64,000 bases of DNA from a bacterium (GTDB lineage Bacteria; Patescibacteriota; Patescibacteriia; HK-STAS-PATE-3): the NCBI GenBank assembly GCA_043800725.1, contig JAZDMR010000009.1, positions 26,662 to 90,661 of the forward strand. The letters run 5' to 3'. Positions within the stretch are counted from its first letter, which is position 1. Each line of letters opens with the position of its first letter. The translations under genes and the position numbers were made by a program. The notes below the pieces were generated by a model. That model did not search any database. It was not told where the DNA came from and worked only from the letters and a program-made list of their open reading frames with translations. Shown one piece after another: positions 6,645 through 52,176 of the stretch.

Positions 6645-6718
6645 TGGCTGCCGGGGAGGGATTTGAACCCCCGTACCCACCTCCAAAGGGTGGTGTCCTA
6701 CCGCTAGACGACCCGGCA
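6645..6718 (-). tRNA. tRNA-Gln (anticodon UUG)
   Basis: Minus-strand 74 nt: TGCCGGG-TC-GTC…GAC-CCACC-CTTTGGA-GGTGG-…GGGGGTTCAAATCCCTC-CCCGGCA-G-CCA. Has a 7-bp acceptor with U1:A72, a T-loop TTCAAAT, an anticodon loop CU-UUG-GA and an encoded CCA. Confidence 0.75.
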
Positions 6719-6904: not shown

Positions 6905-7828
6905 TTAAACCTGTATATACCGGCCTACAGCAATAGCCGCACTGATAGTGCTTAATAATATAGCGGAAATCGCCTGAAGTAGGATAATTTTTACCAAATT
7001 ATCGTTAAAATACTGTAAAAGAGAAAAGTCATACCCTCGGAAAAAATTATCAACCAAGGGCGCGGAGAAATTAATTGTCAGATAAAAAACCAGCGAAGTA
7101 ATCAGAGTGGCAGTAATAGCATAAATAATACTTTCGAAAATAAAGGGATATCTGACAAAAGAATTGGAAGCGCCCACTAATTTCATAATCCCGATTTCTT
7201 CGCGATGAGTGTAAATATTTATTCTCAGAGTGTTATAGATAACCATAAAAGCGATCAGCGCGAAAATGCCCACCAAAATAATGCCCAAGTTTTTTGTCTG
7301 GTCAATTATATTGGAAAGCCGCTGAATAACAATTTGTTTGCTTTCAAAATCCCTTTCTTTGTCCTGGATCAGCGGCCTGATCGAATCATTATCAAAAAAC
7401 TCCAAGATAGCCGGATAGTCGTCCAAGGTTTGCGCCTTGATTACCAGCACCGGCCCAAGCGGATTCAGGCCCAGTTCCTCCAATGATTCACGGATAATCG
7501 GATCGTCTGCGTTTTCTACTTTGAATTCCTCGTATGCCTCCTCAGCAGTTATTTTTCTGATATTCAATATTTCCGACCGAGTGGCCAGCTGTTCGACAAT
7601 CGAATCCAATTGTTCATTGGAGGTATTTTGTGTAAAAAATACCGCCACATCCACCTTTTCAACTATTGCCTCGACTGCTTGATTGCCCAAAGTTTGTACT
7701 GTGATCAGCAAGCTGAGCATGAATAAAGCCAGGGTCAGGATAATGACCGTCACTATGGACAACCAAGCATTCCGATAAAAACCCTGGAAGCCGAACTTAA
7801 TAACCCGTTTAATGTTCTGTATTATCAT
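6905..7828 (-). CDS. ftsX: Cell-division ABC transporter permease FtsX
   Basis: 307 aa with FtsX topology (N-terminal TM, large periplasmic loop, 3 C-terminal TMs). Immediately downstream of ftsE. Confidence 0.8.
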   Translation of the reverse strand: MIIQNIKRVIKFGFQGFYRNAWLSIVTVIILTLALFMLSLLITVQTLGNQAVEAIVEKVDVAVFFTQNTSNEQLDSIVEQLATRSEILNIRKITAEEAYEEFKVENADDPIIRESLEELGLNPLGPVLVIKAQTLDDYPAILEFFDNDSIRPLIQDKERDFESKQIVIQRLSNIIDQTKNLGIILVGIFALIAFMVIYNTLRINIYTHREEIGIMKLVGASNSFVRYPFIFESIIYAITATLITSLVFYLTINFSAPLVDNFFRGYDFSLLQYFNDNLVKIILLQAISAILLSTISAAIAVGRYIQV

Positions 7829-7835
7829 ATTATAA

Positions 7836-8516
7836 TTATAATAGATATTTGCCGGCTATTTGATCCATGGTGATCTCCCCGTGATCAATAGTAATTACTC
7901 TTTTCCTCAACGTGTTAACGATTTCACGATTATGCGTTACCAGGACAACAGTGGTTCCAAATTCGTTAATTTTTTTCAGTAGCGTAATAATTTCCTGGGC
8001 GTTGATCGAATCCAAGTTTCCGGTCGGTTCGTCAGCTACCAAAATTTTCGGCCGATGAACCAAGGATCTGGCAATAACGGCTCTTTGCTGTTCCCCTCCG
8101 GACACATGCTTGGGATATCTGTTCATTTTTGTTTCTAGGCCAACAATTTTAAAAACCTGCGGAACAATCGCCTGAATTTTCTTTTTGGGCTCTCCGGACA
8201 CCTCCAAAGCAAAGGCCACGTTTTCAAACAGCGTTTTTCTGGGTAATAATTTAAAATCCTGAAAAACCACTCCGATTTGGCGTCGAAGCAAAGGTATTTC
8301 ATTTTGCTTAATCTTGGTAATATCCCAGCCTCCGATGATTACTTTTCCTTTGCTAGGCCGCAGCTCGGCAATAATTAACTTGGCAATAGTTGTTTTGCCG
8401 GAACCTGACTGTCCCACCACGGAAACAAATTCACCAGGAGTAATATTCAGCGTTACATTTTTTATGCCTGCTATGTCGCTCGTGTATAATTTTGTAACGT
8501 TTTCGAATTTTATCAT
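7836..8516 (-). CDS. ftsE: Cell-division ATP-binding protein FtsE
   Basis: 226 aa. Walker A (GQSGSGKTT), ABC signature (LSGGEQQRAV), Walker B (ILVADEPTGNLD). Confidence 0.85.
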   Translation of the reverse strand: MIKFENVTKLYTSDIAGIKNVTLNITPGEFVSVVGQSGSGKTTIAKLIIAELRPSKGKVIIGGWDITKIKQNEIPLLRRQIGVVFQDFKLLPRKTLFENVAFALEVSGEPKKKIQAIVPQVFKIVGLETKMNRYPKHVSGGEQQRAVIARSLVHRPKILVADEPTGNLDSINAQEIITLLKKINEFGTTVVLVTHNREIVNTLRKRVITIDHGEITMDQIAGKYLL

Positions 8517-8660
8517 TATTTTTCCCCAACTATAGATTAACGCAAGTTAGCTATTTAGTCCATATATAGCACCTAAAAATTAGTGTTCGAGCGGAGTCGA
8601 GAATTCTAATTTTAGGCATATTTTAAGACAGGCTTCTCCACAAGGTCGAAGACTAATTGC

Positions 8661-10241
8661 CTATTGCTCCATGGCCCAATCACCCAAATCAATCATGTCC
8701 TGGTTTCGCGAGGAGCCTGTATGAGAGCCTAGAAGCACTACTATTCTTTGCTTATCGCCTGAGACAAACTTTAAGCCAAAAGTAGCCATATCAGTGCCTA
8801 AATACCCTGTTTTTCCGCCATAAATGGGCAATCCCTTGTCTAATATATGATTGGAATTCTTGAGCTCAATAATTCTTTCATGATCCGTACCAGTATTCGC
8901 GCTGATGCGATCATATTTAGTTATGCTCATTATTCTGATACCTTCCCTGGTCATCAAATAGTTAATCAATTTGGCCACATCTTTTGGCGTAGAAACATTG
9001 CCGGCATTAATTCCGGTGGTTTCTACAAACAAAGAATTAGTCATACCCAAGCGCCGAGCCGCGTCATTCATTCTGTCAACAAATTCTTGCTGGGTATAGC
9101 CTGAGGCTCTGACTAAAGTTTTGGTGATATTATTGGCCGAGTTAATCAAAACTGCTTTAAGAGCTTCGTCCACTGCTAGCCTGTCTCCTTGATTCATGGG
9201 GATGAAGCTTTCAATCGTGGTATTTACATTATCCGTTGATTCGTAAACAATCTCACTTTGATCATAGGGTATTAAGCTGGTCCCGCCCGGCGACTCAAGA
9301 AAAATTAACACAGTCATCAGCTTGGTAATGCTGGCAATCGGCACGGTTTGAGGATTTTTTTGATAAATAATCCTACCGTCTGTCGGATCATAAACCAGGG
9401 CTGAGCTGGCGGTTATGGCTGGCGCGTTACTAAGCACGTCGGTGGTTTCTGTTTGCGTTTCTTTCGTCTCATCTTTTGGCTCCACACGCACGGTGATAAT
9501 CCCCTCACCCAAACTTTCCAAGGCTAAAAAAGCATCACTGGATAAATCAATAATCCTTCCTTTAACAAACGGACCGATAGATACAATTTTAACTGTGACT
9601 GATTTTTGGTTTGCGGTGTTAGTCACTTTTACATATTCACTAATATTATAATTATTAGACGAGGCGGTCATGGGTCGATTGGCATCTCGATACCAGCTGG
9701 CATAGCCTTCTTGGTAGCCCACCTCTTCAAAAACCGCGATCTTGGAATAGGGCAAATGCGTAAAAGCTCTGACGCTGGAGATGTCTTTTATATCAACTGA
9801 GTACAGAGCAATCCATTTCTCTTTAATAGAATCCCAGTACCTAATTTGCCGATGATCAACACTGCCCGAATCGTACTTTAAAACCACAATTACTTCCTTG
9901 GCAAATATCTTGATCGGATCTGTCAGAATATCAAACTCATACAAAGGACTGACCATTTTCAAATCTTCCGGAATAGGAATTTCTTCATTAATCTGCTTCA
10001 GGGTAATCAGTGCCGGCCGATCCAGCACATTGGGAAATATGCCCATGATTAAATTTTCTGACGGGGTTTTAATAGTGTATCCCTTTTCTACAGTCGCCTG
10101 ATCCAGGTGCAGCTGAATTAAATCAGAATCAACGGCTTGAGCTGTTTGTGCGTTAAATATGGCTACTAAAACTAATAACATCCCCAGGGCAGGGGCTGTA
10201 ATCTTGGTCATTTTTAACATGTTATTTGCGTGTTTTTTCAA
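8661..10241 (-). CDS. Serine-type D-Ala-D-Ala carboxypeptidase (S11) with an N-terminal RlpA-like DPBB domain
   Basis: 526 aa with a signal peptide. Central GYASWYRDANRPMTASS…VKVTN…RIIDLSSDAF matches the RlpA double-psi beta-barrel hallmark. C-terminal SITK (SxxK), SANN (SxN) and KTG motifs match an S11 DD-carboxypeptidase. Confidence 0.65.
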   Translation of the reverse strand: MKKHANNMLKMTKITAPALGMLLVLVAIFNAQTAQAVDSDLIQLHLDQATVEKGYTIKTPSENLIMGIFPNVLDRPALITLKQINEEIPIPEDLKMVSPLYEFDILTDPIKIFAKEVIVVLKYDSGSVDHRQIRYWDSIKEKWIALYSVDIKDISSVRAFTHLPYSKIAVFEEVGYQEGYASWYRDANRPMTASSNNYNISEYVKVTNTANQKSVTVKIVSIGPFVKGRIIDLSSDAFLALESLGEGIITVRVEPKDETKETQTETTDVLSNAPAITASSALVYDPTDGRIIYQKNPQTVPIASITKLMTVLIFLESPGGTSLIPYDQSEIVYESTDNVNTTIESFIPMNQGDRLAVDEALKAVLINSANNITKTLVRASGYTQQEFVDRMNDAARRLGMTNSLFVETTGINAGNVSTPKDVAKLINYLMTREGIRIMSITKYDRISANTGTDHERIIELKNSNHILDKGLPIYGGKTGYLGTDMATFGLKFVSGDKQRIVVLLGSHTGSSRNQDMIDLGDWAMEQ

Positions 10242-16635: not shown

Positions 16636-16710
16636 TGGAGCGAGTAACGGGAATCGAACCCGTGTCTCGACCTTGGGAAGGTCACATAATAACCACTATA
16701 CGATACTCGC
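16636..16710 (-). tRNA. tRNA-Trp (anticodon CCA)
   Basis: Minus-strand 75 nt: GCGAGTA…GACCT-TCCCAAG-AGGTC…ACGGGTTCGATTCCCGT-TACTCGC-T-CCA. Cloverleaf with a 7-bp acceptor stem and T-loop TTCGATT. Confidence 0.75.
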
Positions 16711-17542: not shown

Positions 17543-17618
17543 GCCGAAGTAGCTCAGCTGGCAGAGCAATGCTTTCGTAAAGCAGAGGTCGTGGGTTCGA
17601 TTCCCACCTTCGGCTCCA
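17543..17618 (+). tRNA. tRNA-Thr (anticodon CGU)
   Basis: 76 nt: GCCGAAG-TA-GCTC-AGCTGGCA-GAGC-A-ATGCT-TTCGTAA-AGCAG-AGGTC-GTGGG-TTCGATT-CCCAC-CTTCGGC-T-CCA. One A:G mismatch at the base of the anticodon stem. Confidence 0.75.
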
Positions 17619-31012: not shown

Positions 31013-31094
31013 AGAATTTGATTATATTGCTGATGCGCATCTATAAGCCGAATTCTGTCCATTCCGATTCCCGAAGCAACTAAGTTCGGGACTT

Positions 31095-31503
31095 CGAAAT
31101 TGAATGATTATCTATCTAGTCCCGACGTCGCCATCAGGATCAAGCGACCAACCCGTCCCGATCGCACACTTGTGTGGACGCATCGGGACCTACTTGGTCT
31201 TGCACCGGGTAGGGTTTACCCGCCCAAATGGTCACCCATTCAGGCCGTGCGCTCTTACCGCACGATTTCACCTTTTCCCCGCTCCGCGGGGCTTACCCGC
31301 ATCAACGAGGTAGTATGTTTCTGTTGCACTGGCCCTAAAATACTCGTAAAGTCGGCCGATTTTATGTCGTCTTCGCGAGAATCTCGGTTCCATTTCGGAA
31401 CTACCCACTTCCCCACCTTCGCTAAAGCTACGGTGGGGGGTGTTCGGACTTTCCTCCCCGAACACTGTAAAATGCAGTGCTTCGGGGCAATCATTCAATG
31501 CGC
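31095..31503 (-). ncRNA. rnpB: RNase P RNA (bacterial type A)
   Basis: Minus-strand transcript contains GGAGGAAAGTCCGAAC (the P4 5' strand), CGTGCGGTAAGAGCGCACGG (compare E. coli GCGGUAAGAGCGCAC) and GGGTAAACCC. The P1 helix is closed by TTGAATGATT (31489-31498) pairing with AATCATTCAA (31101-31110). Flanked by an outer inverted repeat, ctgatgcgcat at 31030-31040 and atgcgcatcag at 31499-31509. Confidence 0.75.
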
Positions 31504-31590
31504 ATCAGCAAAGCAAAACATACCCAAAAGTGGCTGACATGTCAAGCTGAAATATATATCAAAAATAGGTTATTTTGTCTGTTTTATGCT

Positions 31591-46362: not shown

Positions 46363-47544
46363 TTATTTAATTCTAATCGGTTCAAGTCCAGGCAAAGTTC
46401 CTTTTTCTAAATAAACCATCATAGCTCCCCCACCCGTAGAAATATGAGTCATTTTTTTCACTAATTTATATTTGTTAAGTATAGCCAGAGTGTCTCCGCC
46501 ACCTACCACTGTTTCAGCTTTACTTTTTGCGAGTTGTTGAGCAATCGATTTTGTGCCATAAGCGAATTTTGAATTCTCAATAAAACCCATGGGTCCATTC
46601 CAAACAACCATTTTGGCTTTTTTAATTATCGAACCGAATAAGGTAACGGTATCCGGCCCAATGTCTAAAATATATTCATTGCTTCTCACCTTGCCAACTG
46701 GCCGTCGATTAATTCCTCGTTTGCCTCTAGATCCCCGCGAAGTAACCACGTCAATCGGTATATGAAGCTTAGGGTTATTCAGGTTTATTTTCTTTATTAT
46801 TTTCTTTATATTAGTATCGCTTACGGATTTACCTATTTGGATTCCTCTGGCGGCTAATATTGTATTTGATAAGGCGCCGCCTAATAATAAATAGTTAACT
46901 TGTTTTAATAATTTATTAATAACAGCCACTTTAGTTTTAATTTTCGCACCGCCAATAATCGCTACCAACGGACGCTTGGGTGATTTTAAAACTCTATCTA
47001 ACATTGTAACTTCTTTTTCCAATAAAGGTCCGGCATAGGATGGCAAGTATTTTTGTAAACCTACAATCGAGGAAACCTTTCTATGGCATTGGCCAAACGC
47101 ATCATTGACCACTAAATCTCCATTTCTAGCCAACTCTTTTGCGAATTCTATTGAATTTTCCTGCTCTTCTTTGTGAAAACGGACATTTTCCAATAAAATA
47201 ATACTTCCGGGTTTAGCTTGTTTTATTTTCTCTCTAACCTGAGGCCCCACGCAATCATCCAGTTTAATTATTGGCATTTTTAATAACGCTCTCAAGCGAT
47301 TTGCTACGGCGTTTATTTTAAACTGAGGATCATTAGCTTTTTTAGGCCGTCCCAGCCAAGTAACGATCACTATTTTATTTGCTCTTTTTTTCAGCCATAA
47401 TATTGAAGGGATGGTTTCTTTAATCCTTGTAACGTCAGGACAACACCAAGAATTACCACGCTTTTGGAGAGTGATATCATAGGTAGCCCTGTAGATTACT
47501 GTTTTATTGTGATAGCTTGCTTGTTTGTATGATCGTAGCTTCAT
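46363..47544 (-). CDS. pgk: Phosphoglycerate kinase
   Basis: 393 aa. LGRPKK hinge motif, DAFG and GGGD/GGA motifs. The N-terminus is somewhat atypical. Confidence 0.85.
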   Translation of the reverse strand: MKLRSYKQASYHNKTVIYRATYDITLQKRGNSWCCPDVTRIKETIPSILWLKKRANKIVIVTWLGRPKKANDPQFKINAVANRLRALLKMPIIKLDDCVGPQVREKIKQAKPGSIILLENVRFHKEEQENSIEFAKELARNGDLVVNDAFGQCHRKVSSIVGLQKYLPSYAGPLLEKEVTMLDRVLKSPKRPLVAIIGGAKIKTKVAVINKLLKQVNYLLLGGALSNTILAARGIQIGKSVSDTNIKKIIKKINLNNPKLHIPIDVVTSRGSRGKRGINRRPVGKVRSNEYILDIGPDTVTLFGSIIKKAKMVVWNGPMGFIENSKFAYGTKSIAQQLAKSKAETVVGGGDTLAILNKYKLVKKMTHISTGGGAMMVYLEKGTLPGLEPIRIK

Positions 47545-47600
47545 TTTATGTGTTCAATTGCTGTAATTATAACATTTTCTAGCCTGAATAAAAAGACTTG

Positions 47601-47630
47601 TTGACAACCAAAATAACCTAGGATTATAAT
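47601..47630 (+). promoter_or_regulatory. Consensus-like sigma70 promoter (TTGACA-17-TTATAAT) with no CDS behind it
   Basis: Read directly. Divergent from the pgk promoter region. Followed at +14 by a GC hairpin and T-run. Confidence 0.4.
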
Positions 47631-47643
47631 ATATTTGGAGTGT

Positions 47644-47676
47644 GGGGAGAGGATTTTATCCTCTCCCCCGTTTTAA
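47644..47676 (+). terminator. Hairpin GGGGAGAGG-8 nt-CCTCTCCCC then CGTTTT (terminator-like), member of the GGAGTGTGGGGAGA repeat pair
   Basis: 9-bp perfect stem and T-run. A near-identical sequence recurs at 55103-55140. Confidence 0.45.
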
Positions 47677-47685
47677 TATTTAAAC

Positions 47686-47720
47686 AATAAAAAATACCGT
47701 TCGTGTGATTACGAACGGTA
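47686..47720 (-). terminator. Rho-independent terminator of the 47721..48446 gene
   Basis: Stem ACCGTTCG / CGAACGGT, with the A-run at 47688-47695 on plus giving a U-run on the minus strand. Confidence 0.55.
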
Positions 47721-48446
47721 TTATAATAGAACCAACTGATTTTGAAACAAAGTGCGATGCTTCTCCAAAACTAGCCAGACATCATTTTGGACTATCTGCT
47801 GTTGATTCCTCCTCACCCTTTTCAAAAAACCTAACACTTCTTTTAGCTGTAGATCTGGGCATTCTTGGGCAAGTTTGCGAAAAGTGATTGCGCCAACAGG
47901 ATTTTTTTTGTAATAACGCGCGAACAATCGATAAGACAGAGCAAATGACATATTGGCCAGAGTCATGGCTAATGAATAATCATGATTTCGCTTTGGATCC
48001 GGAAACTTGCCTTGGACAGTGACTTCTGTGGCATAAGTATAGTACTCACAAGCACAAGAATAAGAAATTCTTGCTCGACGGCATAAAAAACCAACTGCCT
48101 CATCTGATAATCGATTAACCGTTAACCACTTTTTATATCCTTCCGCCTCATCGGCATTGCCCCAGATTAAATCTCCTGTTAAAATCGGCTCGGTAACCAC
48201 CGGATCGAACATTCGCATGAATAAATGAAAATCATTTATTCCAATTTCGGCAATATCAATCAAACCATCCGGCCCATAATATGGATCGATTTGATCGCCT
48301 TCACAAACAGCTATCAGGTCGATATCTTGCTTTTGATTTTTCGAGCCATAGTACCACAGATACCTAATCTGTCCGAAGCGCCTACCAAGACGTGTCCGTA
48401 CTAGTGTCAATATATCTGACTTTGACTGAGACATCTTTGCCTCCAA
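47721..48446 (-). CDS. Putative Pol-beta-superfamily nucleotidyltransferase-fold protein with a C-terminal helical domain
   Basis: 241 aa. YYGSKNQKQDIDLIAV resembles a minimal-NTase GS…DxD motif (the spacing is short). The C-terminal half is predicted helical. Assignment is tentative. Confidence 0.35.
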   Translation of the reverse strand: MEAKMSQSKSDILTLVRTRLGRRFGQIRYLWYYGSKNQKQDIDLIAVCEGDQIDPYYGPDGLIDIAEIGINDFHLFMRMFDPVVTEPILTGDLIWGNADEAEGYKKWLTVNRLSDEAVGFLCRRARISYSCACEYYTYATEVTVQGKFPDPKRNHDYSLAMTLANMSFALSYRLFARYYKKNPVGAITFRKLAQECPDLQLKEVLGFLKRVRRNQQQIVQNDVWLVLEKHRTLFQNQLVLL

Positions 48447-48539
48447 AAAATATAGGGGAGAAACGTATTTAACGCTTCTCCCCTGTGATAGACAACGACT
48501 TACCCCATTTTTAAACAGTCGTTATCTTAGGTGATTGTC

Positions 48540-48737
48540 CTAACGGCCCGGATTCCAGGGCATATGGATCTTCTGGCCGCCCGGGATCTGAGCCGTGGTA
48601 TGGCCGCTGCTGATGTTGCCGTACGGATCGACCCTGAACGTGTCATGAATACCACCGCCCATCGGAGTCGGCCCCATGGGTTGGATACCAAAGCCATTAT
48701 TGATCGGCCGGAACGGAGGATTGGCTGGTATGGACAT
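48540..48737 (-). CDS. Small Pro/Gly-rich protein P1 (65 aa), member of a tandem paralog array
   Basis: MSIPANPPFRPINNGFGIQPMGP… SD is ATAAGGAGAA, 9 nt upstream. GC-rich codons in an AT-rich genome. Confidence 0.5.
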   Translation of the reverse strand: MSIPANPPFRPINNGFGIQPMGPTPMGGGIHDTFRVDPYGNISSGHTTAQIPGGQKIHMPWNPGR

Positions 48738-48870
48738 GATTTAATTCTCCTTATCTGCTTCGAGGTAATGGGCCAGGGCAATTTCTTATCACCCCGGCCC
48801 TTTGATATCTCTTGTTTCACGCTTTCCAACCTTAAGGCCGAAAAACGTCTTGGTTGCGCAGCGTACCGCC
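48738..48870 (-). promoter_or_regulatory. Conserved leader/intergenic element, copy 1 (about 80% identical to 49456..49580); contains hairpin 48770-48800
   Basis: Reading 5' to 3' on the minus strand, the aligned shared blocks are CGCTGCGCAAC, CGGCCTTAAGGTTGGAAAGCGTG, AGATATC, AAGGGYCGGGG, CCCTGGCC and GAAGCAGATAAGGAG. Its 5' part overlaps the last 13 codons of P2. Confidence 0.5.
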
Positions 48871-49071
48871 CAATCTGGCTAACTGTGCATCATTTTCATA
48901 GCTGGGCCGTCCGCCGATTCCGAACGTCGGCAAAGTGGTCTGACCGCTAAACGGCACATGAACCTTTTTCCGACCAAATCCGATATCAGCATGAACACCT
49001 GCTGACGGCGAGAAATGGACCGGGGACAAAGGCTGACCACCAACCATCGGGGGTCTCATGGGAATGGACAT
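48832..49071 (-). CDS. Small Pro/Gly-rich protein P2 (79 aa from the ATG at 49071; ORF track lists a start at 49089 inside the SD)
   Basis: MSIPMRPPMVGGQPLSP…IGFGRKK…FGIGGRPS… SD is GAGGAGGTGAT, 7 nt upstream of the 49071 ATG. Confidence 0.5.
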   Translation of the reverse strand: MSIPMRPPMVGGQPLSPVHFSPSAGVHADIGFGRKKVHVPFSGQTTLPTFGIGGRPSYENDAQLARLGGTLRNQDVFRP

Positions 49072-49179
49072 ACTATCACCTCCTCTCATCGTCCGGTTAA
49101 GGTGATTTTCGCTTTGCTAATCGACATCTAATCAATCCAATGCAATATTTTCATTCAAGAATATGCTGATTCTCAAAGA

Positions 49180-49455
49180 TCACAGAATAGTGGGGAACGG
49201 CAGGGTTGGTCTACTTGTAGGACCAATTGGAGGAAATGTCCCGGGAGGAAAATGCCGGATTGACAATTGCTGAACCTGGGAACAGTATCTTGGCGGATGG
49301 TTTTGGACTGGAAATTGTTGGTCTTGGGAACAGAGTCGTGGTGGGTTGCCAAATCCCACCACTCTTCCACAAAATGGGCAGTGGCCGCCGAAAGTATAGG
49401 TTAAAGGGTGGCCACAGATTGGACAACATGTTCTTGGTAGTGCAGGAAGTGACAT
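49180..49455 (-). CDS. Small Pro-rich zinc-knuckle protein P3 (91 aa)
   Basis: MSLPALPRTCCPICGHPLTYTFGGHCPFCGRVVGFGNPP… has two CPxCG knuckles forming a zinc ribbon. SD is AAGGAGG, 6 nt upstream. Confidence 0.55.
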   Translation of the reverse strand: MSLPALPRTCCPICGHPLTYTFGGHCPFCGRVVGFGNPPRLCSQDQQFPVQNHPPRYCSQVQQLSIRHFPPGTFPPIGPTSRPTLPFPTIL

Positions 49456-49580
49456 AACAAGCCTCCTTATCTGCTTCTAGGTAGTGGCCAGGGTATTTTT
49501 TATCTCCCCGACCCTTCGATATCTCATGTTGCACGCTTTCCAACCTTAAGGCCGGAGAATATCTCTGTTGCGCAGCGTAT
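49456..49580 (-). promoter_or_regulatory. Conserved leader/intergenic element, copy 2; contains hairpin 49485-49514
   Basis: Begins immediately after the P4 stop and ends at the P3 SD. The hairpin differs from copy 1 by a C to U change that keeps pairing as a G.U wobble. Confidence 0.5.
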
Positions 49581-49960
49581 CATCCAGCTTTCAAGAGATT
49601 AAAGCTATTGCAATGCGATTGGATTTGTAATGTAGGCATCAGATGGTCATGAATTCTGGGGTGCAAAGGATCCCATGGTCTAGGCCCCCAGGGTCCTGGA
49701 CAATTATGATGTCCACTAACCCAAGCGCCGCAACTAGAGCAGTACCACTTGTCCATGATCGGATTTGGTCTTGGGAATGGCGAGGGAATACAGTTGTGGA
49801 AGCCATAAACCCATCGACCACAAACATGGCAATGATATCCGCGCTCTTCCCTGCGGCAAACATGAATGCAGCCATCATAGTACTCACCACAGAGAGAACA
49901 GTATTGCCTTCTATCCCAGGTGGGTCCCTGGGGCATACCGGGTAGTGCGGGAAATGACAT
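49580..49960 (-). CDS. Small Cys/His/Pro-rich protein P4 (126 aa) with three CxxCG…(H)HxC repeat units
   Basis: MSFPALPGMPQGPTW…CSLCGEYYDGCIHVC…HCHVCGRWVYGFHNC…CSSCGAWVSGHHNC… SD is AAGGAGG, 6 nt upstream. A 360-bp AT-rich putative promoter region lies upstream. Confidence 0.55.
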   Translation of the reverse strand: MSFPALPGMPQGPTWDRRQYCSLCGEYYDGCIHVCRREERGYHCHVCGRWVYGFHNCIPSPFPRPNPIMDKWYCSSCGAWVSGHHNCPGPWGPRPWDPLHPRIHDHLMPTLQIQSHCNSFNLLKAG

Positions 49961-50322
49961 GACAAGCCTCCTTGTTTAGTTGTCGATGAACGGTTTTAGT
50001 TTCTTTGCTTGCATCATGCGCTAACTGTTATCGAATAACTAAGGAAGAAATAACGAAAAATCCCCCTTTCTGCCTTATTGGGCACTATCGTGAGGGATTT
50101 ATTTCAGAACTACGCGGACTATTAACCAGTTGAATTGGTCTCTATCGTTGAAACAAATTAATAGTTATTTTGTAAATTATCTTGGTTTTATTGATATTTC
50201 AATGGATTATTAATAGCTAATTGAAATTATTTACTTATTCAATTTGTTAATAACCATTTGGAAAAACATGTAAAAAACGAAAAATGGTCATTTTCCGCCA
50301 ATTTTTAAATATACTGCAGTTT

Positions 50323-52176
50323 TTATATCCTTCGAACTAGAAAATATACCTCAAATTGGGGCGATTCCATTTTAATAGTATATTTTCTGATTGGACCCTG
50401 TAAATTTATTGGCAAGGACTGTTGAAGCTTTGTTTTAATCGCTTTCTGCAGCGGAGTAATAATTTTACTTTGCAGCTCATTACGGTCAGCCGTATAGGAA
50501 CAAACCGGAAGGCTGGTTTTATCAAGACTTTCATTTAAATGATCTGCCATGACTTTAAATATTTTTATAGTCGCTATGGCCGACTTCAGTTCTTTGGAAT
50601 CCAGGTGGTGTCCGTGAATCAATATGCTTTTTGTCGTCAGGTCAAAAAATAACGGGAAGGTATCACGTTTACCCTCAAACTGCTCCATTGTCATGGTCAA
50701 AGATGTTTTACCGGTTTTGGAAAACATATCCAAAACCACACTGCCTTTTGAGATAAAATTCGAATAGACATCTTGACTGAGCATCTGCTCGACGATTACT
50801 CCTTTTTCCTCAAAACCGTCGCGACTTGAAGAATAATCAAGATTGATTGTTTCTTTAATCGTACGGCGTAATCCAATAATTATTTTATTTAATTCCCTGA
50901 TTCCGTCTCTCCCCGGGACGACCACTACGATATCTCCGCCACGCCCTGCTCCGGTCATTTTCACTCCCGCATCAGAAAAACCGTATTTTGTTCGAAGACT
51001 GTCTTTTATTATATGGGTTATTCGATTATTTGTCGGGGAAGTACGCCGTAGAATGCGCAATGATTTTTGAAACGAATTTATTGATTGGCATAGACTAGTT
51101 ACTGATCGTTCTGAACCACCCATTTCGAAAAGTTCTTTTAGCGCTAACAATACAAATAACGTTAAAGTCGCATTAGTGCCCAATAAACTCTTATGCAATC
51201 CCTCCCAACCTTCAGTCAGACATTGTTGATAAAATATTGGACTAAAAACATTCTGATTTTCACTTAAAAAGTTGAATGACTTTTTTATGGTTTTATCAAT
51301 TTCCATTAAGTTATTATCAATTTCTCGAATCGACTTCGCTGAACGTCCTCCACCTCGTTCACCTGAAAAAACCAGAAATATTTCCAGCGGCCAGGTCGAA
51401 TCATGAGGGATTTTAAATAGTTCGTCTAGTTTAATTCCGCCATAAAAAAGACGGTCCAATAAATTATAGTTTTCATCGATGTTTAAAGGCACCCGAACGT
51501 CTCCGGGCGTAGCCAGATAACCTGCACGTTTTTCCGAATAATAAATAATCGGATAAATTGATCCGATAAACGATAGAAAGCTCGCACCGCCTGAAGAAAT
51601 TCCGTCATGGAGCAGCGAGGATATTTTCCAGGAAAATCGCTGAGCCCGATCAAATGAGCGTATCTGAGAAAGTAAATATGTAGGCTTTAAAGACCATTTA
51701 TCAATATCTGATAATAAAATTCTGCCAATATGCAATTGCAAAGCTACGGACAAAGCAGACGCAAACGATCCCGAGGCGCCCATCCCGTTTCCTGGCGGTA
51801 CTTCGCAAATAGAGTGAATACGCAAGCTTTGAAAATCCGGTCGACCCAACCACTGTTCTACCCGACTTCGCAGGTACCGTTCCAAATTTTTTCGATGTAT
51901 CTGATCCATCTGCGCGATAAAATTATCACGCGATGGAATATACATTTTATCGATTATTTCTATCTTGCCCTTCGACTTCAAATATTCCAGACCAACATAA
52001 GCGCGTAGCGGCAGATTTTGTCCGATTAAGGGACTGCCGATATATGCACCGTATTCGCCTGCCCAGAAAAACTTTACCGGTGTGGAAACAACGATAAAAC
52101 AGCTTGAGTAGAGATTTTGGTAAATCTCTTTATGTCTCTGTTTTATACTTTTTGAGTTGTTGATCCGCTCAGCCAT
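50323..52176 (-). CDS. GHMP-family kinase with an unusually long inter-motif spacing and a C-terminal extension of about 170 aa
   Basis: 617 aa. Motif I-like PVKFFWAGEYGAYIGSP, motif II PPGNGMGASGSFASA, motif III KMTGAGRGGDIVVVVPG (GHMP_kinases_C). Residues after about 450 are unassigned. Confidence 0.6.
   Translation of the reverse strand: MAERINNSKSIKQRHKEIYQNLYSSCFIVVSTPVKFFWAGEYGAYIGSPLIGQNLPLRAYVGLEYLKSKGKIEIIDKMYIPSRDNFIAQMDQIHRKNLERYLRSRVEQWLGRPDFQSLRIHSICEVPPGNGMGASGSFASALSVALQLHIGRILLSDIDKWSLKPTYLLSQIRSFDRAQRFSWKISSLLHDGISSGGASFLSFIGSIYPIIYYSEKRAGYLATPGDVRVPLNIDENYNLLDRLFYGGIKLDELFKIPHDSTWPLEIFLVFSGERGGGRSAKSIREIDNNLMEIDKTIKKSFNFLSENQNVFSPIFYQQCLTEGWEGLHKSLLGTNATLTLFVLLALKELFEMGGSERSVTSLCQSINSFQKSLRILRRTSPTNNRITHIIKDSLRTKYGFSDAGVKMTGAGRGGDIVVVVPGRDGIRELNKIIIGLRRTIKETINLDYSSSRDGFEEKGVIVEQMLSQDVYSNFISKGSVVLDMFSKTGKTSLTMTMEQFEGKRDTFPLFFDLTTKSILIHGHHLDSKELKSAIATIKIFKVMADHLNESLDKTSLPVCSYTADRNELQSKIITPLQKAIKTKLQQSLPINLQGPIRKYTIKMESPQFEVYFLVRRI

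Follow-up and report, generated by a model that had tools for sequence, protein, structure and literature searches.

What do four consecutive small open reading frames (ORFs), similar in their first residues and crowded with proline, glycine and cysteine, do in the genome of a member of the Patescibacteria? They lie on one strand of a 64,000-nucleotide stretch of contig JAZDMR010000009.1 (assembly GCA_043800725.1), which as a whole we call the window, and are flanked by a GHMP-kinase-like gene and a weakly nucleotidyltransferase (NTase)-like gene. In the order in which they would be transcribed we call them P4, P3, P2 and P1. A preliminary description, made from the sequence alone, had seen in them a tandem array of paralogs and had offered three functions: a cluster making ribosomally synthesized and post-translationally modified peptides (RiPPs), a family of small zinc-ribbon or stress-type proteins, or a toxin/immunity-type module. 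Of the four ORFs, at least three truly encode proteins. The array as a whole appears to be the local form of a conserved module consisting of the GHMP-like protein, an array of small ORFs and sometimes the NTase-like gene. The best reading, a joint claim that we hold with as much doubt as confidence, is that a one-component activator controls a regulon of small proteins that bind metal or protein. The preliminary description had overlooked three things on which much of what follows turns: the DNA repeat between the cistrons, the lack of paralogy, and the regulator and promoter context.

We examined whether the four ORFs are genes. Their coordinates, lengths and N-termini were all reproduced (Table 1), as was the canonical Shine-Dalgarno (SD) sequence reported before each. 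AGGAGG-type sites lie 6-10 nt upstream of all four starts: AAGGAGG at 6 nt 5' of the ATG in P4 and P3, GAGGAGG at 7 nt in P2, and AAGGAG at 10 nt in P1. Likewise, the Pro/Gly richness and the CPxCG and HCxxCG units are present. Pro accounts for 13-20% and Gly for 9-17% of P1-P4, and Cys for 8-9% of P3 and P4, compared with 3.9%, 6.4% and 0.5%, respectively, in the long ORFs of the window. The array had also been called a far more GC-rich island; its elevated GC content is real (0.50 over positions 48540-49960 vs 0.40 in the remaining window), the wording "far more" being somewhat overstated. Homologs of P1, P3 and P4 were found at E values of about 1e-27, 4e-12 and 4e-39, and the array is therefore more than chance, as its SDs had been taken to argue; P2 is the one ORF without a homolog. 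In the public record of this metagenome-assembled genome, named only "bacterium" (V1853_00890 to 00905), P1 (V1853_00895), P2 (V1853_00900) and both flanking genes, the NTase-like one being V1853_00890, are the only ones of the set annotated. P3 and P4 are missing from it, and the exact P4 sequence is absent from the protein collection as well; they are two real genes that the public annotation lacks. None of P1 to P4 gave a match near threshold in Pfam, NCBIfam, PHROGs or PADLOC, and literature text searches found no description of these proteins.

A region of GC-rich, structured non-coding RNA, or the wreck of a larger gene, could also produce ORFs by chance, and this we consider extremely improbable. 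Such a reading would suit a GC-rich island in an AT-rich genome, the many overlapping ORFs in other frames, the missing annotation of P3 and P4, the isolation of P2, and the existence of a protein, P0133, in which P4 and P3 form one ORF. Yet protein-level conservation of the reading frame is seen in P1, P3 and P4, P1 and P3 have more synonymous than non-synonymous differences, and every ORF has a correctly spaced SD. Moreover, a scan of the whole window against Rfam at the gathering threshold returned nothing in the array region, and no nucleotide-level conservation with related loci was found outside the coding frames. Frame conservation thus largely refutes the non-coding reading, with the exception that P4 and P3 may descend from one gene. 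The preliminary description had kept the idea of a single degraded gene in view, and P0133 touches on it in part; in the window, however, P4 and P3 each have their own SD and ATG.

P1 relatives are encoded at 12 metagenome loci, recovered by a degenerate-pattern scan of metagenome contigs. A profile search enlarged the family to at least 128 protein clusters, all labeled "hypothetical" and none with a Pfam domain; wherever a taxon is given, it is Patescibacteria or Buchananbacteria. Each fetched locus (numbered with the prefix L) shows one clear P1 copy. In the family alignment a variable N-terminus precedes a highly conserved stretch, residues 16-62, with the motif F[KR]P[LI]..G[WF]GIQP.GPSPLGGDIHDTF.VD..GN[IL]S.GHTT.RIPGG.....PW, or in short form GGDIHDTF...GN.S.GHTT.R.PGG...PW. 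His31 is invariant, and His46 and Asp29 are kept in at least 90% of members. P1 and its homolog in L026 share 78% amino acid identity, with a proportion of non-synonymous differences (pN) of 0.17, a proportion of synonymous differences (pS) of 0.66 and a dN/dS of about 0.12, whereas the genes neighboring that homolog are merely 26-38% identical to their window counterparts. Comparison with the L007 homolog gave a dN/dS of about 0.18. These values point to purifying selection on P1. An AlphaFold2 model of P1 is all-beta, with a four-to-five-stranded antiparallel sheet (pLDDT 85.6), suggesting that P1 is a conserved all-beta mini-protein. The model had no informative structural neighbor, a PDB sequence search with the P1 profile gave nothing useful, and no conserved leader RNA was found 5' of P1 homologs in other genomes.

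Two side observations concern this family. The GC content at third codon positions (GC3) of P1-family genes is 0.62-0.88 (window, L007, L012, L013, L017, L021 and L026) in loci whose GC content is 0.37-0.59, and the neighbors of P1 in the window have a GC3 of 0.31-0.44. This excess at synonymous sites is not explained by amino acid composition; expression-linked codon bias or selection on the mRNA could account for it. In addition, arrays of relatives encode His/Asp-rich proteins of 62-67 aa (L001 10313-10516, L009 4743-4931, L004 10608-10802 and L006 3598-3795) with an "H[VA]TT.IPG" stretch that recalls the GHTT.RIPGG of P1. They were not accepted as P1 relatives: the P1 profile matched them at just E 0.5-7.0 in a tiny local database.

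To judge by its cysteine spacing, P3 is a C(P)XCG zinc ribbon followed by a Pro-rich tail. CPICG at residues 11-15 and CPFCG at residues 26-30 are both kept in L026 and in P0133, and the tail ends in LPFPTIL. The P3 homolog of L026, a syntenic locus, is a standalone gene (7467-7664; tblastn E 4e-12; pN 0.33 vs pS 0.84) that encodes MSYPRICSECGYTLNCTMGGHCPHCGAMVGFGLPP...PTLPFPSVF. P4, in turn, would be a triple C2HC-knuckle protein, its three C-x2-C-x8/9-H-x-C knuckles being kept in P4 homologs. The P4 family is rare. A word-indexed protein search with P4 returned nothing, and an exhaustive HMMER search of 1.84 billion representatives returned two proteins: P0133 (163 aa, E 3.9e-39, 63% identity across residues 1-93) and P0134 (106 aa, E 5.7e-4), which has two similar knuckles. 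P0133 is encoded on a 680-nt contig of the European Nucleotide Archive and combines, in a single protein, an N-terminus with P4-like triple knuckles and a zinc ribbon and tail of the P3 type; P3 aligns with its C-terminal half. Similarity to P0133 persists in the tail of P4 as found in the window, extending through the linker as far as the first Cys of the P3 body. A PDB sequence search with P0133 gave nothing useful.

Zinc-finger micro-proteins of the C(P)XCG type are an established class in Haloferax volcanii, for example HVO_0758 and HVO_2753. They are cytoplasmic, numerous and poorly conserved, carry two C(P)XCG knuckles but no enzymatic domain, and serve in regulation or binding (PMC10716476). 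P3 is like them in being very small and in its pair of C(P)XCG motifs. Unlike that archaeal class, defined with a cut-off of at most 70 aa, P3 has 91 aa and a long Pro-rich tail with a conserved LPFP end, and P4 has three C-x2-C-x8/9-H-x-C units; neither shows sequence homology to the known examples, and their zinc binding is a prediction. Among the three functions first offered, small zinc-ribbon proteins nevertheless fit best, with two C(P)XCG motifs in P3 and three knuckles in P4.

A related possibility is that the Cys/His/Asp-rich mini-proteins store zinc or another metal, or deliver it as metallochaperones, while the regulator tracks the metabolic state. P4 has 11 Cys and 10 His, P3 has 7 Cys, and the P1 family keeps the His and Asp residues named above; the arrays of relatives add DnaJ-type CxxCxGxG proteins to the His/Asp-rich ones. 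We nevertheless regard a metal-buffering set as unlikely. These points are all ones of composition, the CxxC spacing is typical of structural zinc ribbons and not of metallothioneins, and neither a regulator of the Zur, ArsR or CsoR type nor a metal transporter is linked to the arrays.

The resemblance that had led to the term paralogous is confined to the first 5-7 residues, beyond which P1-P4 have no detectable mutual similarity. As far as sequence comparison can tell, the four are not paralogs and belong to unrelated families. P2 is an orphan unsupported by homology: it has no homolog in the fetched loci and stands in a cluster of one member. P2 as a diverged paralog of P1 was rejected, hhalign giving a probability of 0.5% against the P1-family profile. 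The shared MS[ILF]P start is instead a DNA-level duplication that includes the SD and leader. P4 (49941-49973) and P3 (49436-49468) share a 33-nt segment, comprising the SD and codons 1-7, at 91% identity. A second repeat lies 5' of P3 and of P1, with blocks that are 84-92% identical and one exact stretch of 23 nt. It is thus copying of the SD and first codons from gene to gene, and not paralogy, that gave the four proteins their MS-x-P start.

This second, two-hairpin repeat begins in the final codons or 3' flank of one gene and ends in the opening codons of the next. Its conserved blocks extend over about 135 nt, and the nhmmer alignment over about 160 nt. Two strong hairpins make up the fold of copy B (-50.3 kcal/mol, z -3.8), the stop codon of P2 sitting in the loop of hairpin 1; the fold of copy A is weaker. 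Between the copies, which are only two, three stem changes preserve pairing and four break it. Positions 47500-51000 compared with Rfam gave nothing at E up to 10, nhmmer found two copies only in the window and the fetched loci, both in the window, and a 20-mer from the repeat core had no exact match in 185,579 species genomes, a collection that evidently lacks the window genome. The repeat is therefore lineage-specific. It may act as an intercistronic stabilizer or processing element, or may be a mere scar of the rearrangement that separated P4 from P3; the match of the P4 tail to the linker of P0133 hints that the repeat split an ancestral P4/P3 gene. Another frame contains two ORFs, 100 and 110 aa long (48527-48829 and 49211-49543, minus strand), with the near-identical start MESV[KQ][QH]EISKGRGDKK; these are artefacts of this repeat and not genes.

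Whether such an array accompanies the GHMP-like and NTase-like genes elsewhere had been raised as a question by the preliminary description, and the answer is positive. The GHMP-like protein has nine homologs at 49-58% identity, and in all nine loci 2-5 same-strand ORFs of 50-90 aa follow its gene. Most of these have good SDs, and many are CxxC-paired or Pro-, Gly- or His-rich. They fall into several families that are shuffled between loci, the array of L007 holding a P1 homolog. The genes flanking the module vary by locus and include SpoIID, NAPRTase, bPH_2, a queuosine-synthesis gene and a Pel9A-like gene. Distant homologs of the GHMP-like protein (26-34% identity) occur in L014/L015, L021 and L026-L028, each followed by a P1 homolog. 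In L014/L015 and L026-L028 an NTase-like homolog comes after the P1 homolog, as in the window. L026-L028 additionally have a P3 homolog, located after the GHMP-like gene and before the P1 homolog. At four distinct loci the NTase-like gene forms the third part of the module.

The arrays share a promoter-like motif as well. It consists of two or three TTCC[GT]/TTCG direct repeats with a 10-11-nt period and stands right after the T-run of a terminator. The pattern TTCCKTAKTNNTNC has a single match in the window, at 50033-50046 on the minus strand, where 0.15 would be expected by chance. In related loci it has 10 distinct matches, all on the gene strand and all within arrays. Motif instances were located at L001 9846-9874 and 11347-11360, L004 9889-9914, L005 7904-7931, L006 2448-2475, L007 2543-2569 and 3289-3316, L009 3433-3461, L010 3004-3031 and 3369-3395, and L014 5894-5921. 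In a -10 element two positions are key, which the pattern nAnnnT represents. This hexamer starts 15 nt after the motif in nine instances and 16 nt after it in three, accounting for all 12, while other offsets yield 0-4. TTCC-type repeats with this fixed nAnnnT spacing lie 3' of the GHMP-like gene in all close relatives, and small-protein genes are often found behind their own copy. Together the position, repeats and spacing look like a dedicated promoter class for small-ORF genes. In the window, transcription would start near position 50006, leaving a leader of about 45 nt before P4. The motif was also considered as an anti-SD RNA element and rejected: the 5' untranslated region folds no better than shuffled sequences (z +0.34), and the motif usually comes directly after a terminator.

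Upstream of the motif, the window has a peculiarity. A 14-nt direct repeat (plus strand, 50048-50061 AAATAACGAAAAAT and 50272-50285 AAAAAACGAAAAAT, 224 nt from start to start) brackets a very AT-rich stretch (GC about 0.27) that separates the GHMP-like gene from the motif, and a 32-nt palindrome lies within it at 50196-50227. Because the motif of relatives directly follows the terminator, the AT-rich stretch may be an insertion.

Since the window holds a sole copy of the motif and a hairpin abuts the SD of the NTase-like gene, we interpret P4, P3, P2, P1 and the NTase-like gene as a single operon that has an attenuator inside it. Its order would be promoter motif, P4, two-hairpin spacer, P3, P2, two-hairpin spacer, P1, attenuator hairpin and NTase-like gene. 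The hairpin after P1 is the only terminator-like one within the array and is probably an attenuator. A similar GC-rich hairpin of the form GGGAGnAGCGT...ACGnTnCTCCC, with a T-rich tail, is also found in L026 at about 8253-8280, between the P1 and NTase homologs, where it likewise abuts the SD of the latter. Its presence in both genomes suggests conserved attenuation between P1 and the NTase-like gene.

The preliminary description of the flanking genes stood for the GHMP-like protein, which Pfam recognizes in its homologs, and more weakly for the NTase-like one. The latter starts with the ATG at 48434, in agreement with the NCBI protein, and not with the TTG at 48446 as first proposed. Its family reaches Pfam Polbeta with a weak match (E 0.006 in two of four homologs), and a PDB sequence search with the NTase profile gave nothing useful. 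Pfam and NCBIfam scans of the neighbors of the array in the window matched the GHMP-like, NAPRTase and NTase-like genes only.

In toxin-antitoxin systems of the MntA-HepT type a minimal NTase is co-transcribed with a small partner gene. Likewise, the NTase-like gene is here read as co-transcribed with a small gene, directly after P1 in the window and in L026; it also comes directly after P1 in L014 and lies beside P1 in L018. The accompanying small proteins are short and fast-evolving. A toxin-antitoxin, immunity or defense module along the lines of the nucleotidyltransferase-based type VII systems, with the NTase-like protein neutralizing or activating a small toxic protein, could be imagined on this basis, but we find it very unlikely. 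Unlike in MntA-HepT, no HEPN-like partner or other toxin domain was found, the NTase match is weak, and the partnership is not obligatory, many P1 loci having no NTase. PADLOC returned zero matches for the six proteins, and neither it nor Pfam lent the toxin/immunity option any support. Viral contigs searched with the P1 profile held no P1 relatives. P1, moreover, is highly conserved and has one clear copy per locus, more in the manner of a housekeeping accessory gene.

About 440 aa of the GHMP-like protein, its N-terminal part, have the GHMP-kinase fold. Pfam GHMP_kinases_N is matched in 10/10 homologs (best E 1e-6), the window protein itself scoring 21.6 bits against a cut-off of 22.3, and mevalonate kinases in PDB match the protein at E 6e-7. 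GHMP motif II (PxGSGLGxS) is present as PPGNGMGASGSFASAL, and motif III is present too. At the catalytic Asp element the kinase "SGvD" aligns with "sGgA" in a single HMMER alignment to 8tfo; SGGA instead of SGxD would be expected for a sensor that has lost catalysis. The C-terminus is modeled as a putative OmpR/PhoB-type winged helix resembling those of AdeR, PhoP, KdpE and CpxR, and is a probable DNA-binding tail. Pfam Trans_reg_C was not reached at threshold, with one of 10 homologs matching at E 0.2. A search of the species-genome contig collection with the GHMP-like protein returned nothing, the window genome evidently being outside it. Literature text searches found no description of a GHMP/OmpR-type fusion, and we know of no GHMP fold fused to an OmpR-type DNA-binding domain.

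Activators of the PhoB/OmpR type bind direct-repeat boxes that replace the -35 element, such as the pho box. The present system is like them in its predicted winged helix and in its two or three direct repeats with a 10-11-nt period that end 14-15 nt before a weak -10. Unlike them, the GHMP-like protein has no receiver domain and is accompanied by no histidine kinase. Because its N-terminal 440 aa adopt the GHMP-kinase fold instead, signal input would come through ligand binding and not phosphotransfer.

We propose that the constants of the module are the upstream GHMP-kinase-like protein and a specific promoter, in which TTCC-type direct repeats would occupy the -35 region ahead of the weak -10. 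On sensing ATP and/or a metabolite through its GHMP-like domain, the protein would engage the repeats with its winged helix and turn on transcription of the small-protein genes, as PhoB does at pho boxes; both the link of this regulator to the motif and activation rather than repression we infer, whereas the genes, their conservation and synteny, and the motif with its fixed geometry are observed. The products would be intracellular zinc- or protein-binding mini-proteins, similar to the archaeal C(P)XCG micro-proteins, which is the weakest step of the proposal, and would not be precursors of modified peptides.

Several points weigh against such a regulon. The link between regulator and motif is predicted, and the motif could instead be recognized by an alternative sigma factor or a different regulator. 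Metal binding, expression and partners of the small proteins are predictions likewise. The degenerate motif pattern was derived from the same loci that were later used for counting, and only three instances were found after its derivation (L001 11347, L005 7917 and L010 3382), before further small ORFs or, in L005, before a radical-SAM/SPASM gene. P2 has no homolog. Finally, P1 homologs occur without an adjacent GHMP-like gene in L012, L013, L016, L017 and L022; at such loci an unrelated small zinc-ribbon ORF often lies 5' of the P1 homolog (L012, L013 and L022).

The radical-SAM/SPASM gene bears on the RiPP option, under which the small ORFs would encode precursors destined for modification, for example phosphorylation by the GHMP-like protein or nucleotidylation by the NTase-like protein, and possibly for export. 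In L005 the gene (8109-9302) lies after the GHMP-like gene, behind the same promoter motif, and is followed by a 64-aa ORF. Its product is of the peptide-maturase type, the best NCBIfam matches being ScmE, mycofactocin maturase, NirJ and sactipeptide maturases, all below their cut-offs. The small products themselves are diverse and Cys/Pro/Gly-rich, and are encoded beside two enzyme-like genes. Such a gene, however, occurs in 1 of about 12 related loci, and Pfam and NCBIfam scans recognized no maturase, protease or exporter in the window or in most relatives. P1 keeps its 78% identity between genomes whose neighboring genes have diverged far more, and its folded beta-sheet model (pLDDT 86) and conserved core with a variable N-terminus are the reverse of the disorder and hypervariable core of a precursor. 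The frequent private copies of the promoter motif are what independent genes would have, and in the GHMP-like family the position of the mevalonate-kinase catalytic Asp reads SGGA in the one alignment available. A RiPP-like cluster is thus very improbable. It is less likely than the regulon of small binding proteins, as are the toxin module and the non-coding region.

Table 1. Features of the small-ORF array and its surroundings (positions in the window)
Feature	Positions	Strand	Description
NTase-like protein	47721..48434	minus	237 aa; YGS...DIDL motif; NCBI V1853_00890; homologs adjoin P1 homologs in L026, L014 and L018
Intrinsic-terminator-like hairpin	48454..48484	minus	13-bp stem, then ATATTTTTTG T-run; directly before the SD of the NTase-like gene
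P1	48540-48737	minus	65 aa; start MSIPANPPF; ORF and SD
Intercistronic repeat copy B	48724..48884	minus	last 10 codons of P2, two hairpins, P1 leader, SD and start
P2	48832-49071	minus	79 aa from MSIPM; start MSIPMRPPM; Gly/Pro-rich; ORF and SD
P3	49180-49455	minus	91 aa; start MSLPALPRT; ORF and SD
Intercistronic repeat copy A	49442..49599	minus	P4 stop region through P3 leader, SD and first codons; repeat search, alignments, nhmmer E 2e-51
P4	49580-49960	minus	126 aa; start MSFPALPGM; ORF and SD
-10-like hexamer	50013..50018	minus	CATGAT; starts 15 nt after the motif
Promoter/operator-like motif	50031..50059	minus	direct repeats TTCGT-N6-TTCCT-N6-TTCGA; core TTCCTTAGTTATTC at 50033-50046
GHMP-kinase-like protein	50323..52176	minus	617 aa; C-terminal OmpR/PhoB-type winged-helix-like domain; putative one-component regulator of the array

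Elsewhere in the window, nearly all genes are on the minus strand. An RNase P RNA of bacterial class A lies at 31028-31506 (minus, 194 bits), and tRNAs lie at 6648-6718 (minus), 16639-16710 (minus) and 17543-17615 (plus).

Small regulons under a one-component regulator, with zinc-finger micro-proteins among their products, follow an overall logic that is already known; what is new here is the P1 family, the copying of cassettes, the promoter motif and the sensor fold. Genomes of Patescibacteria, or the Candidate Phyla Radiation, are small and hold many unannotated genes, and the regulation of their transcription is barely known. In this setting the locus is a self-contained, testable unit, with a candidate regulator of unusual sensor fold, a precisely positioned motif and the P1 family, a widespread micro-protein family that has no annotation, Pfam model or solved relative. 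The locus also illustrates how micro-protein genes may be created and rearranged by copying translation-initiation cassettes. The motif predicts regulon members in related genomes, and if the link to the regulator is true, it could be used to find more unannotated small genes.

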